A DNA stretch of 64,000 nt from Coprococcus sp. (GTDB lineage: Bacteria > Bacillota > Clostridia > Lachnospirales > Lachnospiraceae), in NCBI GenBank assembly GCA_050874325.1, contig JBNMKK010000006.1:551-64550 (forward strand), written 5' to 3'. The position numbers and the translations under genes are program-made. Shown here piece by piece: positions 1,814-50,468 of the stretch. The notes beneath the pieces are model-generated. The model did not search any database and was not told the origin of the DNA. It saw only the letters and a program-made list of their open reading frames with translations. Position 1 is the first letter of the stretch. Every line of letters starts with the position of its first letter.

Positions 1814-4285
1814 CTATTTATCCTTTTGTTTTGCAGTAAGTGATACTTTCTCCGTAACAGATCCATCCTCACCCTTGGCTTTCTTCACAGATACAGTGAC
1901 TATATCTCCCTTATGAACTTTTCCCACAAGAATAGCCTCCGCCAGTTCATCTTCAACGTAGGTCTGTATAGCACGCTTGAGTGGTCTTGCACCATACTTC
2001 TTGTCATAGCCCTTCTCAAAGATATATTTCTTCATATGATCTGTAAATTTGAGTTCTATATCCATCTGAGCCTGAACTCGCTTTTTGAGTTCCCTCAGCA
2101 TGAGACCTGCAATATCCCGGACATTTTTCTCAGTAAGTGCATGGAATACTATGGTGTCATCTATTCTGTTGAGGAACTCTGGCTTAAATGTCCGTTTCAG
2201 CTCATCCATGACATTTTTCTTCATGTCCTCATGTTCTTTACTATCATCCTGAACCGTTACAAACCCCAGCTGTTTTGGATCAATGATCCTCTGTGCACCT
2301 GTGTTTGATGTCATGATGATAATGGTGTTCTTGAAGTCTACTTTTCTTCCCTGTGAATCAGTTATATGTCCATCATCAAGTACCTGCAAAAGTATATTGA
2401 ACACATCACTATGTGCCTTCTCTATCTCGTCGAACAGTATCACTGAATATGGATTTGTCCTTACCTTCTCACTGAGTTGTCCGCCCTCCTCAAATCCTAC
2501 ATATCCAGGAGGCGAACCGATAAGCTTTGATACACTGTGCTTTTCCATGTATTCCGACATGTCAACTCTTATAAGTGCATCCTCACTTCCAAATACAACC
2601 TCAGCAAGAGCCTTTGAAAGTTCAGTCTTACCCACACCGGTCGGTCCAAGGAACAGAAATGTGCCTATAGGTCTTCTAGGATCTTTGAGTCCTACCCTAC
2701 TCCTCTTTATCGCCTTTGCCACAGCCGACACGGCCTCATCCTGCCCAACAACGCGCTTATGGAGCTCTGTTTCAAGCCTCTCAAGTCTCTTTGATTCTTT
2801 CTCCGTAAGTCTGCTCACCGGTATTTTTGTCCACACGGACACAACATCCGCAATATCATTTTCACCGATAACTATATTGTGTCCACCTGTGGCACGACTG
2901 CGTGCAGACTTTCTGGCGATCTCTTCCTGTCTTCGCCTGATATTTGCTGCCTCATCTATATTTCCTGACATGAGTGCAGCCTCAAGATCACTGTCAAGGG
3001 TCGCCAGTTCCGCCTCATTTTTGTCATGGGCTGTTCCCTGCATAGTGAATCCAAGCCGTCTTCGTGAACACGCCTCATCCATTAGATCTATCGCCTTATC
3101 CGGGAGGAATCTATCCGTAATGTATCTGACTGACAGATCTACAGCGGCCTCCACAGCCTCATCACTTATCTCTACCCCATGGTGCTGTTCGTAACAGGCC
3201 CTAAGTCCTTTTAGTATCTCAACAGCCTCATCTCTCGTCGGTTCCTCCACATTTACAGGCTGGAACCTTCTCTCAAGGGCTGCATCTTTCTCTATATATT
3301 TCCTGTATTCTGCCCTCGTAGTGGCACCTATCATCTGGATCTCACCACGAGAAAGGGATGGTTTTAGTATATTTGACGCGTCTATTGCGCCCTCCGCATC
3401 ACCCGCGCCAACCAAGGTGTGAAGTTCATCCACGAACAGGATCACGTCACCGGAGGCTACCACCTCCTGGATAACCTTCTTTATCCTGTCCTCAAATTCT
3501 CCTCTGTATTTGGAGCCAGCAAGCATACCAGATATATCCAGTGACAAAAGTCTCTTTCCCCTCACCGTATCCGGCACATTATCATGGGCTATCATATATG
3601 CTATGCCTTCAACCACAGCAGTCTTACCAACTCCCGGTTCACCAACCAGACAAGGGTTATTCTTCATTCTCCTGCTGAGTATCTGCATAACTCTCTGGAT
3701 CTCCTTCTCCCTACCGACAACCGGATCCAGATTACCAAGTCTTGCCTCCTTTGTGATATCCCTCGAATACTTATCGAGTGTCGGTGTAGAAGAACCTGCC
3801 TTTGCCTTTTTCTTCTTGATAGCAGCATATTCTTTCTTTGCCACACTCAAATCCAACCCACAGGTCGTGAGTATATCCGTATACACCTTTTGCATATTTA
3901 TTTTTTCTATCTGCATAAGTCTGACGGCAACACTGCTCTGTTCCTTTAATATGGCAAGCAGCAAATGTTCCGTTCCAACCTCCTCAGACGACAGCCTTGC
4001 AGCCTCAACCTGAGCATCGTCCAGTATATTTTTTGCAGTCTCAGTATATTTGTCTTTTTCCCTTGTAACTGTTCCACCCGGTTCTAGGATAAACTTCAAG
4101 GCATGTGTGACCTTTGTTATATCCAGCCCATTACTGTTAAGTATACTGTATGCTGTGGTATCCGAAACCGACGCCAACGCAAGTATCATATGCTCACTTC
4201 CGACAAAGTTCTGTCCCAGCTTTCGTGCTACCCTGTTAGCCTCTTTTAAAACTACCTCTGTTTCTTTGCTATATGGCAATTTCAT
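1814..4285 (-). CDS. clpC: ATP-dependent Clp protease ATP-binding subunit ClpC
   Basis: Clp-N repeats ([15 protein letters not shown]), two Walker A motifs ([16 protein letters not shown]), DAALERRF and GARPLKR. Start moved to ATG 4285 (MKLPY), which has a GAGGTG SD. Confidence 0.95.
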
Positions 4286-34665: not shown

Positions 34666-36711
34666 CTATTCTCCTTTTTTACTATTCTTCGCATTTGCGT
34701 TTTTCTTTGCATCTGTCGATCTTTTTGCCGGTGTGCCGCTGCTTTTTTCATAATACACTTTCGTCTTGTCAAACACACCCGTTATTCCGCCCTGATTCTG
34801 TATCTGCTTTACTCGATTGGTATACTGTGTCACATAAGTTGTCATCTTCTGTGTATATTCTTCCTTTGAGATCTGGCCTTCCGCCACTCCCTCAAGTCCT
34901 TTTTCCCAGCTTGCAGTGAGATCTGCACGCAGCAATCCATTTATAGAATAATATACTATATCGTAGATGATCTCCCCCAGAAATGTCGGTGTGACTATCT
35001 GAGTTTTTTTGTTCAGTGATATGTATTTATTATTCTCAAGTTTCGTGATTATCCCATCCCTTGTGGCACTTGTTCCGATACCTGCGCCCTTTATCTGCTC
35101 TCGGAGATCCTCATCCTCTATGAACTGTCCTGCGTTCTCCATTGTCAGGATGAGAGATCCTGAGTTATATCTCTTCGGAGGGGATGTCTCACCTTCCTTA
35201 ATCTCTATATTCTGTACATTCAGCGTATCGCCCTTTTTGATCTTTGCCAGTCTGTCTATAAATTCCTGACTGTACTTCGGCTCATCCTTCTTCTTGGAAA
35301 AACTGTTGGCAGCGACCTTGAGATACCCCTCACTTATGAGGTATTTAAAATTCGCAAAAAGCTTTTCACCGTTCTTTGTAAGGGTCATAGCTACCTTCTG
35401 AAATTCTGCTGCCGGATAGAATATGCTCAGAAATCTTCTGCAAATGATCTCATAAACCTTGAGCGCCGTCGGTGCCAGACTCTTAAGTGCGCCAAATCCC
35501 TGTCCCGTGGGAATGATCGCATAATGGTCGGTGATCTGTTTGTCATTGACATATTTGGTCTTGGCTATTCCTTTGTATGTGCCGCTCTCCATCGCTCCCT
35601 GTGCAAATGCCGCCACCGGCTGAAAATTCTTCAGTCCTGAGATGTTTCTCCCAATCTCCTTCGCAACCGCCGTGGAGAGAACCCTGGCATCCGTTCTCGG
35701 GTATGTCACAAGCTTTTTCTCATAAAGCTCCTGGACTATCTTTAACGTATCTGATGGGCTTATCTTGAAAAGAGCAGAACAGTCATTTTGTAGTTCGGCA
35801 AGATTATAGAGCATAGGAGGCTGTTTCTTCTCCTTCTTTCTCTCGATTGACTCCACCACTGCCTCCGGTGCCCCTTCATTGAGTTCCCCAAGAAGCCTTT
35901 CTGCATCTGCTCGTTCCTTGAATCCATTCTCCTTGTAGAGCAAAGGCGACTCAAAATACTTCGTGTCCTTAACAGCTTTCCACTCAGCGTCAAATGTCTG
36001 ACCTTTCTCACCCACGCTTGCCACAAGTCTGTAAAATGGTGTCTTCACAAACTCCCTTATCTCACGCTCTCTCTTCACTATGATACCGAGCACACACGTC
36101 ATAACTCGTCCAACAGCTATCACACATCTGTCCATGCCAAGATATCTCTGGACAACATTGGAAAATTTGAGTGAAAGCGCCCTGGAAAAATTGATACCCA
36201 TGAGGTAGTCCTCCTGAGCCCTCAAATATGCCGCATCACTTAAACTGTCATACTCAGAAAGAGGTTTTGCCTCCCTGATCCCTCGAAGTATCTCCTCCTC
36301 GGTTTGGGAATCTATCCATACCCTTCTCTTTTCCTTACCGCTCACCTGCGCCATGGAATCTACGAGTCTGTATATGTATTCTCCCTCTCTTCCCGAATCC
36401 GTGGCAACATAGATGCAGCCCACATCATCTCGGTTGAGCAGTCCTGCAACTATGTTGAACTGTTTCTTTGTATTCGGAAGTATCTCATACTTGTATTCAG
36501 TTGGAATAAAGGGAATCGTCGCAAGATCCCACTTCTTCAAAGCTGGATCATACACGTCCGGATAACTCATGGTGATAAGATGTCCCACACACCAGGTCAC
36601 AACCGCCGTGTCAGACTCCAGATAACCATTTCCGGCATTTCCCTTAACCCCCAGCACATCGGCAAACTGCCTTGCAACGCTAGGTTTCTCTGCTATATAT
36701 AAATTCTTCAA
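34666..36711 (-). CDS. topB: DNA topoisomerase III
   Basis: IAEKPSVA, TWCVGHL, ATDSGREGE, GRVMT, TYPRTD (catalytic Tyr), DHYAIIPT, GIGTSATR; TTG start. Confidence 0.9.
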   Translation of the reverse strand: MKNLYIAEKPSVARQFADVLGVKGNAGNGYLESDTAVVTWCVGHLITMSYPDVYDPALKKWDLATIPFIPTEYKYEILPNTKKQFNIVAGLLNRDDVGCIYVATDSGREGEYIYRLVDSMAQVSGKEKRRVWIDSQTEEEILRGIREAKPLSEYDSLSDAAYLRAQEDYLMGINFSRALSLKFSNVVQRYLGMDRCVIAVGRVMTCVLGIIVKREREIREFVKTPFYRLVASVGEKGQTFDAEWKAVKDTKYFESPLLYKENGFKERADAERLLGELNEGAPEAVVESIERKKEKKQPPMLYNLAELQNDCSALFKISPSDTLKIVQELYEKKLVTYPRTDARVLSTAVAKEIGRNISGLKNFQPVAAFAQGAMESGTYKGIAKTKYVNDKQITDHYAIIPTGQGFGALKSLAPTALKVYEIICRRFLSIFYPAAEFQKVAMTLTKNGEKLFANFKYLISEGYLKVAANSFSKKKDEPKYSQEFIDRLAKIKKGDTLNVQNIEIKEGETSPPKRYNSGSLILTMENAGQFIEDEDLREQIKGAGIGTSATRDGIITKLENNKYISLNKKTQIVTPTFLGEIIYDIVYYSINGLLRADLTASWEKGLEGVAEGQISKEEYTQKMTTYVTQYTNRVKQIQNQGGITGVFDKTKVYYEKSSGTPAKRSTDAKKNANAKNSKKGE

Positions 36712-48363: not shown

Positions 48364-48970
48364 CCAACTCTATTTTCTCCTGTATCTCATCTTTAAGATT
48401 TTTCAACCTGCCTATATCACCATATGTCACTATATGATATTTTTTCTCACCTGTTTTTTTCTTCAATACATGTGATACCGGATATATATTATCTGATTTA
48501 CTACTATCTATCCCCTCTACTCTAAAAGAATATGGTACTTTACACTTTCCCTGTATCTCTCCCAGCGAATTTTTGTCATCCCCTAAGCATACTGTAAACT
48601 CCTGATTTGCAACTCCTAATTTATAAGAAAACGTCTTCGTCTCTATGTCTGTGATTACGCTCGCGTCTTTATCGGTAATATCACTCAATTCAATAAGGAT
48701 ACCAGTTTTCTTATCTGCAAGGTCATAAGGATGATCTTCATTGAAAAAAATCTCTCCCGGTCGTAATCCCCGCTGTGCCAAAGCATGATTATAAAAATCG
48801 TCAGCCCTAAGTAATGATGCCACTCCCGTCAAATGCATAAATGAGGATTTCTTAAACATAACCTCAAAATAATCATCATCAAATACAAACATATATGTAT
48901 TTCCTACAAATATCTCCTTATATTTTAATGCTGCGTTATGTATCCTTCTTATTATCTGTGATTTTCCCAC
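48356..48970 (-). CDS. PBECR4-like (BECR-fold) putative ribonuclease / toxin
   Basis: AALKYKEIFVG..YMFVFD..FEVMFK..FMHLTGV and DHPYDLA resemble PBECR4-domain proteins as I recall them. The true start is likely GTG at 48970, 6 nt after AGGAGG (204 aa). Confidence 0.75.
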   Translation of the reverse strand: MGKSQIIRRIHNAALKYKEIFVGNTYMFVFDDDYFEVMFKKSSFMHLTGVASLLRADDFYNHALAQRGLRPGEIFFNEDHPYDLADKKTGILIELSDITDKDASVITDIETKTFSYKLGVANQEFTVCLGDDKNSLGEIQGKCKVPYSFRVEGIDSSKSDNIYPVSHVLKKKTGEKKYHIVTYGDIGRLKNLKDEIQEKIELDE

Positions 48971-48992
48971 TCCACTCCTCCTTATAGTACAT

Positions 48993-49021
48993 AAAAAGGG
49001 AAGCTCATCGCTTCCCTTTTT
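48993..49021 (-). terminator. Intrinsic terminator immediately upstream of the PBECR4-like gene
   Basis: Perfect 12-bp inverted repeat AAAAAGGGAAGC-GATGA-GCTTCCCTTTTT, ending 22 nt before the GTG. Confidence 0.92.
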
Positions 49022-49203
49022 GAATAACCACTGGCCGTTCGCCTTGATATCATTCAAGGCATCAGCGTATGACCTAATCCTCATACTGGATATGATATTG
49101 TACTTAAGTACTTTCGTATCACCCGAATCATTATATTGATATCATCGCAATAATATAGCCACGGATTCTTTGTTGCTCCGTGTGCAACCCAGTGCTTTCT
49201 TAT
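48993..49203 (-). ncRNA. Candidate structured non-coding RNA (putative RNA antitoxin), about 210 nt
   Basis: Bounded by a sigma-A promoter and a terminator; contains an H-type pseudoknot (49160-49188) and the hairpin GCCTTGA/TCAAGGC (49041-49060); no SD-supported ORF. Confidence 0.55.
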
Positions 49204-49208
49204 CTATT

Positions 49209-49237
49209 ATACTATACTAAACATTTGTAAATGTCAA
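49209..49237 (-). promoter_or_regulatory. Sigma-A promoter directly after the tyrS stop codon
   Basis: Minus strand TTGACA-N17-TAGTAT (overlapping TATAGT and TATAAT also present). Confidence 0.75.
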
Positions 49238-49247
49238 CGTATATCCC

Positions 49248-50468
49248 TTACTTACTAACCTTCCTGAAGTTCTTCTTACCACGTCTGACAACAACTCCCT
49301 CACCGTCAAACTTCTCCTCAGGGATTGCAGTCTGGACATCTGTAACTTTCTCACCGTCAACTGCGACACCGCCCTGCTCTACGGCACGTCTGCCCTCGTT
49401 TCGTGATGTTACAAGTCCTGACTTTACAAGAACTGATACGATATCAATGGCTCCATCCTTGAAGTCATCTGCTGCAAGTGTCACTGATGGCATGTCTGCT
49501 GCAACGCCCTTTGAGAACAGCGCTCTTGCACTCTCCTGAGCCTTTACAGCCTCCTCCTCGCCGTGTACAAGCTTTGTGAGCTCGTATGCAAGGATCTCCT
49601 TTGCCTGGTTGAGCTGGCTGCCCTCCCAGCTGTCCATCTTGTCGATCTCCTCAAGTGGAAGGAATGTCAACATACGGATACACTTCAGAACATCTGCATC
49701 TGCGACATTTCTCCAGTACTGGTAAAACTCAAATGGTGAAGTCTTATTAGGATCAAGCCAAACAGCACCCTTCTGTGTCTTACCCATCTTCTTGCCCTCT
49801 GAGTTGAGCAGAAGTGTGATAGTCATGGCATATGCATCCTTGCCAAGCTTTCTTCTGATAAGCTCTGTACCACCGAGCATGTTGCTCCACTGGTCATCAC
49901 CGCCGAACTGCATGTTGCAGCCGTACTTCTGGTACAGTGCATAGAAATCGTAGCTCTGCATGATCATGTAGTTGAACTCAAGGAAACTAAGTCCCTTCTC
50001 CATACGCTGCTTGTAGCACTCTGCGCGGAGCATGTTGTTTACTGAGAAACAAGCACCAACGTCACGGAGAACATCAACGTAGTTCAGATCAAGCAGCCAG
50101 TCTGCGTTGTTGACAAGGAGTGCCTTGTCCTCTGAGAAGTCGATGAACTTGCTCATCTGTTTCTTGAAACAGTCTACATTGTGCTGGATAGTCTCCTTTG
50201 TCATCATCTGTCTCATATCTGTACGGCCTGACGGATCACCTATCATGGCTGTACCACCGCCTATCAGCGCGATAGGCTTGTTGCCTGCCATCTGAAGTCT
50301 CTTCATCAGACAGAGCGCCATGAAATGGCCTACATGCAGGCTGTCAGCAGTCGGATCAAATCCAATATAGAATACTGCCTTACCATTATTTACCAAATCT
50401 CTAATTTCATCTTCATCTGTTGTCTGCGCTATAAGCCCTCTGGCTACAAGCTCGTCATAAATCTGCAT
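49248..50468 (-). CDS. tyrS: Tyrosine--tRNA ligase
   Basis: [43 protein letters not shown]-terminal S4 domain (RRGKKNF). Confidence 0.98.

Follow-up and report, generated by a model that had tools for sequence, protein, structure and literature searches.

On the minus strand of the window (the whole 64,000-nt stretch of Coprococcus sp. DNA that was analysed), the tyrosyl-tRNA synthetase gene tyrS is followed by a promoter, approximately 210 nt without a credible open reading frame, a terminator, the sequence AGGAGG, a GTG start codon, a gene for a PBECR4 protein and a gene for an MFS transporter (Table 1). From the position of the promoter, we place the start of transcription at about 49203-49201; homologous loci keep the same distance between the promoter and AGAAAGCACTGG. 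The stop codon of tyrS lies 10 nt upstream of the -35 box, with no separate tyrS terminator between the two; tyrS transcripts should therefore run into the RNA as well. The space between the RNA and the PBECR4 gene is too short for a second promoter. According to model R1, this genome holds one copy of the RNA.

Table 1. Features of the RNA-PBECR4 locus (window coordinates; A3 is the alignment of 16 class A RNAs described in the text; MFE, minimum free energy).
Feature	Position	Strand	Description
tyrS (tyrosyl-tRNA synthetase)	49248..50468	-	Pfam tRNA-synt_1b, E 1.6e-80
Promoter	49209..49237	-	TTGACA 49237-49232, 17-nt spacer, TAGTAT 49214-49209; 10/12 matches in consensus scan
Whole RNA gene, ~210 nt	48993..49203	-	Structured core and intrinsic terminator
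P1 5' strand CACTGG	49189..49194	-	Pairs with 49034-49029
PK1 (29 nt)	49160..49188	-	H-type pseudoknot; sequence read and covariation
PK1 S1	49188-49184 with 49176-49172	-	GTTGC pairs with GCAAC; 5 bp
PK1 L1	49183	-	A; L2 of PK1 is 0
PK1 S2	49182-49177 with 49165-49160	-	CACGGA pairs with TCCGTG; 6 bp
PK1 L3	49171-49166	-	AAAGAA; A-rich
P3 hairpin	49130..49154	-	ATTATTG ... CAATATAAT, with bulge and conserved loop; 80% paired, 5/7 pairs changed on both sides
P4 hairpin	49113..49127	-	TTCG-GGTGATA-CGAA, conserved GTGRYA loop; 83% paired, 3/4 pairs changed on both sides
P5 hairpin	49100..49111	-	GTAC-TTAA-GTAC; in MFE fold, only 27% paired in A3; weak
PK2, second H-type pseudoknot	49067..49091	-	ATCC-A-GTATGA-GGAT-TAGG-TCATAC; covariation (A3)
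P7 hairpin	49041..49060	-	GCCTTGA-ATGATA-TCAAGGC; 87.5% paired, 4/7 pairs changed on both sides; in MFE fold
P1 3' strand CCAGTG	49029..49034	-	Covariation (A3)
Intrinsic terminator	48993..49021	-	AAAAAGGGAAGC-GATGA-GCTTCCCTTTTT; 12-bp stem in MFE fold
RBS and PBECR4 gene, 204 aa	48356..48982	-	AGGAGG 48982-48977, GTG 48970-48968, TAA 48358-48356; Pfam PF18813

The start of the PBECR4 gene is fixed by two observations: MGKSQIIRRIH is the conserved N-terminus of PBECR4 in our protein alignment (A2), and the start codon at the MGKSQII position is TTG or GTG in sister strains of Coprococcus. We rejected a 242-aa open reading frame beginning at ATG 49084 as the real gene: its N-terminal 38 residues cross the 3' half of the RNA and the terminator, and these extra residues are conserved only among close relatives. 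Public records of 242, 232 or 230 aa (e.g. P0002, P0005 and P0026) start at upstream in-frame codons (window 48971-49084), and such long PBECR4 records translate through the 3' half of the RNA and the terminator.

The window protein matches PBECR4 (Pfam PF18813) at 83.6 bits against a cut-off of 27 (E 3e-23), over positions 1-187 of the 188 in the model. Both the toxicity and the RNase activity of PBECR4 are predictions (Pfam; Iyer et al. 2017, PMC5512222). Residues that are invariant or nearly invariant in A2 include H46, T48, H80, K88 and R150 (window protein numbering), and these fit the predicted metal-independent RNase. An AlphaFold2 model made from a 22-sequence alignment reached a pLDDT of 90.5. 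A Foldseek search of this model against the PDB found no neighbour, with BECR-fold proteins and ToxN included (best E-value 0.75), a profile search of PDB sequences found no PBECR4 relative, and PADLOC gave no match for PBECR4. The protein falls in a PHROGs family of unknown function, and BFVD contains two unnamed viral proteins with the same fold (TM 0.72 and 0.65). PBECR domains have been described within polyvalent proteins and as solo genes, in phages and mobile elements, and no RNA partner is mentioned for them (Iyer, Burroughs, Anand, de Souza and Aravind 2017, PMC5512222). The window protein is likewise a solo PBECR4; it differs in having a putative RNA partner. Outside that study, we met the name PBECR4 in the literature in an unrelated context only.

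Homologous loci were gathered by protein search, alignment A2 and a species-genome scan (49 loci) and then by eight look-ups of encoding contigs; 56 loci were tabulated in total. We found the gene order promoter, RNA, intrinsic terminator, toxin gene in 53 of these 56. Moreover, a leader RNA is present at every one of the 43 tabulated loci that have both a full-length PBECR4 gene (at least 200 aa) and adequate upstream sequence; 42 were found by pattern match, and the remaining one (L069) is a variant recognised by eye. The layout at these 43 loci is a promoter, a structured RNA of 175-270 nt, a terminator, a ribosome-binding site and the start codon. The only locus without a leader RNA, L036, has a gene cut to 156 aa. 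At another (L068), only 82 nt of upstream sequence are available, yet the 3' end of a class A RNA is visible there. The RNAs form two classes that track the clade of the protein: class A RNAs go with PBECR4 proteins 41-87% identical to the window protein, and class B RNAs with proteins 30-39% identical to it.

The sequence-only reading had singled out an H-type pseudoknot, here called PK1, and had put it about 14 nt after the predicted transcription start. We found the sequence GTTGC-A-CACGGA-GCAAC-AAAGAA-TCCGTG exactly as described at 49188..49160 of the minus strand, with 11 of 11 pairs Watson-Crick, and the start inferred above makes PK1 begin 14-16 nt into the transcript. To gauge chance, both strands of the whole window were scanned for perfect knots of this size in a relaxed search (S1 of 5 bp, S2 of 6 bp, L1 of 1-3, L2 of 0-1 and L3 of 3-8 nt; 36 loop geometries). 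Two were found, against approximately 1.1 expected; the other perfect 11-bp pattern, at 35145-35174 on the plus strand (TCAGG-ATG-AGAGAT-CCTGA-GTTAT-ATCTCT), is consistent with chance. Because the bare pattern occurs at chance frequency, it is not significant alone, and homologues were needed to decide.

We therefore turned to 16 class A RNAs from unrelated loci, aligned with MAFFT (A3). This alignment was fitted to no structure, and was scored against a structure written from inspection; slid controls gave 39-47% pairing, and none of 500 shuffles attained the observed scores. We found that S1 of PK1 is 100% paired, with both sides changed in four of its five pairs, and that S2 is 97.9% paired, with both sides changed in all six: overall, 10 of the 11 pairs have changed on both sides. 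The S2 variants include CACGGA/TCCGTG, CACAGA/TCTGTG, CGTAGA/TCTACG, CGTAAA/TTTACG, CACAAA/TTTGTG, CATAAG/CTTATG and others. The genome G065 adds CACAGG/CCTGTG, bringing the number of different S2 sequences to nine, every one of them paired. The loops are conserved as well, with a purine L1, a zero-length L2 and an A-rich L3; across class A, L1 of 1 nt spans the 6-bp S2 and L3 of 6-11 nt spans an S1 of 5-6 bp. A short L1, no L2 and an A-rich L3 fit the geometry of a coaxially stacked H-type knot (Pleij's rules). PK1 thus has the crossing, covarying stems of an H-type pseudoknot and loops long enough to span the grooves. The covariation in homologous loci that had been proposed as a check is present, and it is on this conservation with compensatory changes, not on the bare pattern, that we count PK1 as real: it is almost certainly a conserved structure.

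PK1 might instead be no knot at all, with S1 and S2 forming mutually exclusive hairpins or the pattern arising by chance. This would accord with the chance frequency of the bare pattern (2 found, ~1.1 expected) and with the nested MFE fold, which uses S2 only; covariation, too, speaks for the formation of S1 and of S2 each, and by itself does not prove that they form simultaneously. However, both stems covary strongly in two RNA classes, and the conserved loop lengths (L1 of 0-1 nt, L2 of 0, an A-rich L3 of 6-11 nt) are those that a coaxially stacked H-type knot requires, a constraint that a model of switching hairpins does not predict. We regard the absence of a knot as highly improbable.

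The rest of the RNA is also structured. The nested MFE fold of the window RNA has a free energy of -67.8 kcal/mol (z = -5.48) and recovers P1, S2 of PK1, the S2 stem of PK2, P7 and the terminator. The P1 helix closes a core of approximately 175 nt in which PK1 is the first domain, followed by hairpins and PK2. P1 (CACTGG/CCAGTG), with its strands 170 nt apart, is 100% paired in the 16 sequences; two of its six pairs changed on both sides, with compensatory variants CACCGG/CCGGTG and CGCTGG/CCAGCG. Both stems of PK2 are 100% paired in A3, with changes on both sides in one of the four pairs of S1 (ATCC/GGAT) and three of the six pairs of S2 (GTATGA/TCATAC). PK1 and PK2 differ in sequence and share a design: L1 of 0-1 nt, no L2, and an A-rich or AU-rich L3. 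The sequence of P5 is lineage-specific and poorly aligned in A3, and the terminator stem GGGAAGC/GCTTCCC is conserved at class A loci of other genera (A3).

This architecture bears on two proposals of the sequence-only reading, namely that PK1 is a separate 29-nt module and that it may be excised by the nuclease at flanking A-rich sites. The first does not hold, as the 5' flank of PK1 is a strand of P1, the helix that closes a fold of ~175 nt containing a second pseudoknot. Since that flank is one strand of a covarying helix, excision at the A-rich flanks is unlikely; in addition, the L031 group does not conserve the A-rich 5' flank.

We found the same two knots in class B. In an alignment of 24 class B RNAs (A5), the equivalent of PK1 stands directly after P1 (e.g. 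CTGC-A-GATGGA-GCAG-GATAAAAT-TCCATC), with S1 97.9% and S2 95.8% paired. The second knot (AGTCC-A-CGTGGG-GGACT-TAATGATT-TCCACG) has stems that are 97.5% and 94.6% paired, and the whole structure is 94.6% paired, compared with ~40% for slid controls. Because both knots covary in class B and hold the same place relative to P1, PK1 can be considered one of two hallmark modules of the RNA family. One further RNA, at L193 (G261:C29, 380-600), is intermediate between the classes: it begins with a 5' hairpin carrying a CAGAAATG loop, as in class B, continues with a class A-like layout of P1, PK1 and PK2, and precedes an intact PBECR4 gene. This intermediate suggests that class A and class B are homologous. 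A cmscan of the window RNA against Rfam 15 (4227 models, including ToxI and drum, RF02958; E up to 10) returned only terminator-driven noise, and a scan of class A and class B leaders from eight loci gave no family match. Classes A and B are an RNA family absent from Rfam 15.

How might such an RNA act? We searched for antisense pairing with the toxin mRNA, and found that the longest complement is 9 nt, a length attained by 69 of 200 shuffles. As there is no match beyond chance, any action of the RNA would be on the protein; a type I or type VIII-like antisense action on the toxin mRNA was rejected, the 9-nt complement being at shuffle level.

The RNA could be a cis-acting leader, that is, a riboswitch or a protein- or signal-responsive attenuator whose core senses a small molecule or an infection signal and sets terminator readthrough into the PBECR4 gene, with no neutralisation involved. 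The order of structured leader, intrinsic terminator, ribosome-binding site and gene is that of such an element, the junction and loop nucleotides are invariant across genera, and the strict linkage of RNA and gene fits a 5' UTR equally well, since the promoter lies upstream of the RNA. Moreover, H-type pseudoknots are classic small aptamers, as in preQ1-II and SAM-II. Like the preQ1-II, SAM-II and SAM-V aptamers, the RNA presents a compact H-type knot in which L1 is short and the A-rich L3 can lie in the S1 groove, within a 5' leader before a terminator. In contrast to them, it has no Rfam match and no antiterminator, places two knots within a much larger fold, and precedes the gene of a predicted nuclease rather than a metabolic or transport gene. 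A riboswitch or attenuator would have a conserved antiterminator that overlaps the sensor and competes with the terminator. In the 16 sequences, we found no conserved antiterminator or alternative pairing with either terminator arm: the best complement in the core was 4-6 nt and was not conserved. The terminator stem and the 3' strand of P1 are separate and share no nucleotides. In addition, the RNA has its own consensus promoter even directly behind another gene, and loci with a dead or missing gene still hold RNAs whose structure is preserved, as described below. We consider a cis-acting leader of this kind unlikely.

RNAs without a functional toxin gene were found in both cellular and viral sequences. 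G065 has an intact RNA with an internally deleted toxin, and at several MAG loci an intact RNA accompanies a truncated toxin gene; the truncated toxins in MAGs may be assembly errors. The Lachnospiraceae genome G424 carries two class A copies 5 kb apart (L191, G424:C3, 109-285 and 5002-5187). In the first, the RNA and its terminator are complete, no PBECR4 start follows, and the end of the contig is 108 nt away. The second breaks off within PK2, where it is fused to the region upstream of a gene for a 333-aa protein. This protein, rich in cysteine, is probably secreted. Among viral sequences, the 21-nt class B motif occurs in 54 IMG/VR contigs, with PBECR4 directly downstream in 44; about 10 of the 54 have no PBECR4 within 1.1 kb. 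These contigs with orphan class B RNAs may include host flanks. In four of them, the class B RNA and its terminator are present with no open reading frame, and the RNAs show a compensatory hairpin difference between them. The toxin-less RNAs in viral contigs are of class B only: scans of IMG/VR with the class A motif gave only chance matches without flanking features, and blastn of the window RNA against 50,697 phage records gave no match. Modules of class B RNA and PBECR4 (L195-L248) occur commonly in gut-metagenome viral contigs 70-165 kb long, and in one case (L207) a class B RNA lies ahead of an open reading frame resembling a small terminase subunit.

The cassette has decayed in close relatives. 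Within the genus, the full leader is found only in G004, an uncultured Coprococcus sp. that is 97% identical and has an identical PK1; the contig of G003 ends inside PK1. In G008 and G013 the promoter is kept, 132 nt (49211-49080, PK1 included) are gone, and the toxin gene survives as fragments only. G018 keeps part of the promoter and has a different deletion end from that of G008 and G013, and in G012 the first codons of the toxin gene survive. In G015, G010, G011 and G021, the RNA gene is reduced to its final ~83 nt (P7, the 3' strand of P1 and the terminator), which follow the stop codon of tyrS directly. This relic (window 48985-49067, minus strand) is 90-99% identical at L020, L021, L022, L023 and L026, and it appears to serve as the terminator of tyrS in these cassette-less sister species. 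The 3' part of the RNA, including GGGAAGC/GCTTCCC, recurs at unrelated loci in other genera, which argues that the cassette is ancestral in the clade and that the terminator was retained for tyrS. A relic of an RNA gene would thus explain the conserved 83-nt tail after tyrS that sister Coprococcus species share. Imperfect direct repeats, ATACGTTGAC (49232-49250) and ATACGCTGAT (49057-49068), lie on either side of the 5' part of the RNA gene (~180 nt), and relic-only species have a single repeat copy (ACGTTGAC / TCGTTGAT). The 5' part was probably lost by recombination between the flanking repeats. The losses of the RNA core and toxin in sister species are independent deletions, as would be expected of a dispensable selfish or defence cassette.

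We hypothesize that the RNA is a type III-like RNA antitoxin of PBECR4, and put the probability of this reading at roughly 55%. It is supported by the linkage at 43 of 43 loci, the match between RNA class and protein clade, the terminator between RNA and gene, the lack of an antiterminator, and the RNAs that outlive the toxin. Several features count against it. The RNA is large and single-copy, its junction and loop nucleotides are invariant and a terminator comes next, all of which is riboswitch-like; it forms no repeat array and shows no processing sites; and the orphan RNAs are of class B only, with class A absent from the phage collections searched. The structure, conservation, gene order and co-occurrence are observations; we infer binding, neutralisation, toxicity and any role in phage defence.

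In the mechanism that we propose, a sigma-70-type promoter dedicated to the RNA would drive its transcription, and tyrS transcripts would probably carry the RNA at their 3' end as well. The RNA would fold into the P1-closed core, with two H-type pseudoknots and hairpins, and end in the strong intrinsic terminator. Only transcripts that read through this terminator would carry the gene for PBECR4, the predicted metal-independent RNase. RNA in excess would then bind PBECR4 and hold it in an inactive state, in the manner of type III toxin-antitoxin systems; PK1 and PK2 would be the likely units of protein contact. PK1 may plausibly bind the toxin.

The RNA might also be a positive partner of PBECR4, serving as a scaffold, a specificity or guide subunit, or an activating sensor in a working RNP. 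Obligate co-occurrence and the co-diversification of RNA class with protein clade speak for such a partner, the fold is larger and more elaborate than simple inhibition would seem to need, and the protein has a novel fold without solved relatives. However, a terminator that gives an excess of RNA over the protein message follows the logic of a type III antitoxin, RNAs found without the protein are easier to understand as antidotes or decoys, and we saw no evident variable, guide-like segment: the variable parts are base-paired stems. We judge a positive partnership to be quite improbable.

To our knowledge, there are three established families of type III toxin-antitoxin systems, all with ToxN-like toxins and repeat-array RNAs. 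The antitoxin that we favour would resemble these in part. The H-type knot recognised by the sequence-only reading does lie shortly downstream of a promoter, and the RNA that contains it precedes a terminator and the gene of a predicted nuclease, which is the type III gene order: as in ToxIN (ToxI RNA, ToxN/AbiQ toxin), one transcription unit runs from promoter through a pseudoknotted non-coding RNA and a Rho-independent terminator to the gene of a predicted endoribonuclease. A further resemblance to ToxIN is that the cassette, chromosomal or mobile, has a patchy distribution and is readily lost. The identification of PK1 as a ToxI-type unit fails, as there is no tandem repeat (TRF, minimum score 30, 48950-49260), the protein is PBECR4 without a structural match to ToxN, and the RNA has no Rfam family. 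ToxI consists of 5.5 near-identical 36-nt repeats cut by ToxN, whereas here a single P1-closed fold of ~175 nt contains two knots of distinct sequence, and the toxin has neither sequence nor fold match to ToxN. With CptIN and TenpIN the locus shares about two RNA units; their RNAs are, however, tandem direct repeats and their toxins ToxN-like, and neither feature is found here. CptIN occurs in gut Firmicutes of the Coprococcus/Eubacterium type, and in CptIN and TenpIN the RNA antitoxin and the toxin form an RNP (Blower et al. 2012; recent work, PMC8860590, PMC13682666, PMC12283969). The toxin here is not of the ToxN/AbiQ/CptN/TenpN type, and a tandem direct-repeat array is absent: the module is type III-like and is not a member of ToxIN, CptIN or TenpIN.

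More tentatively, and at odds that we would set below even, PBECR4 and the double-pseudoknot RNA may represent a fourth family of type III-like modules, toxin-antitoxin or abortive-infection, that is widespread in gut and rumen Firmicutes and their large phages, with an RNase fold that has no solved relative and a single, non-repetitive RNA. Each knot would hold one protomer, and the orphan RNAs of phages would be antidotes that disarm the host toxin. If so, RNA antitoxins would have evolved more than once, with an unrelated RNase and a single large RNA in the same gene order; the catalogues would gain a new RNA family, PBECR4 a testable biological role, and phage counter-defence the use of RNA decoys.

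Two of the homologous loci have other structured RNAs nearby. In an uncultured Lachnospiraceae MAG (L029), a Clostridiales-3 RNA (RF02942, 134.7 bits, E 1e-35) lies at 3945-4158, approximately 0.8 kb downstream of PBECR4. At L045, a pemK RNA motif (RF02913) occupies 12-68 on the minus strand, approximately 2.4 kb upstream of a module of class B RNA and PBECR4, and scores 36.0 bits against a gathering score of 34.8.
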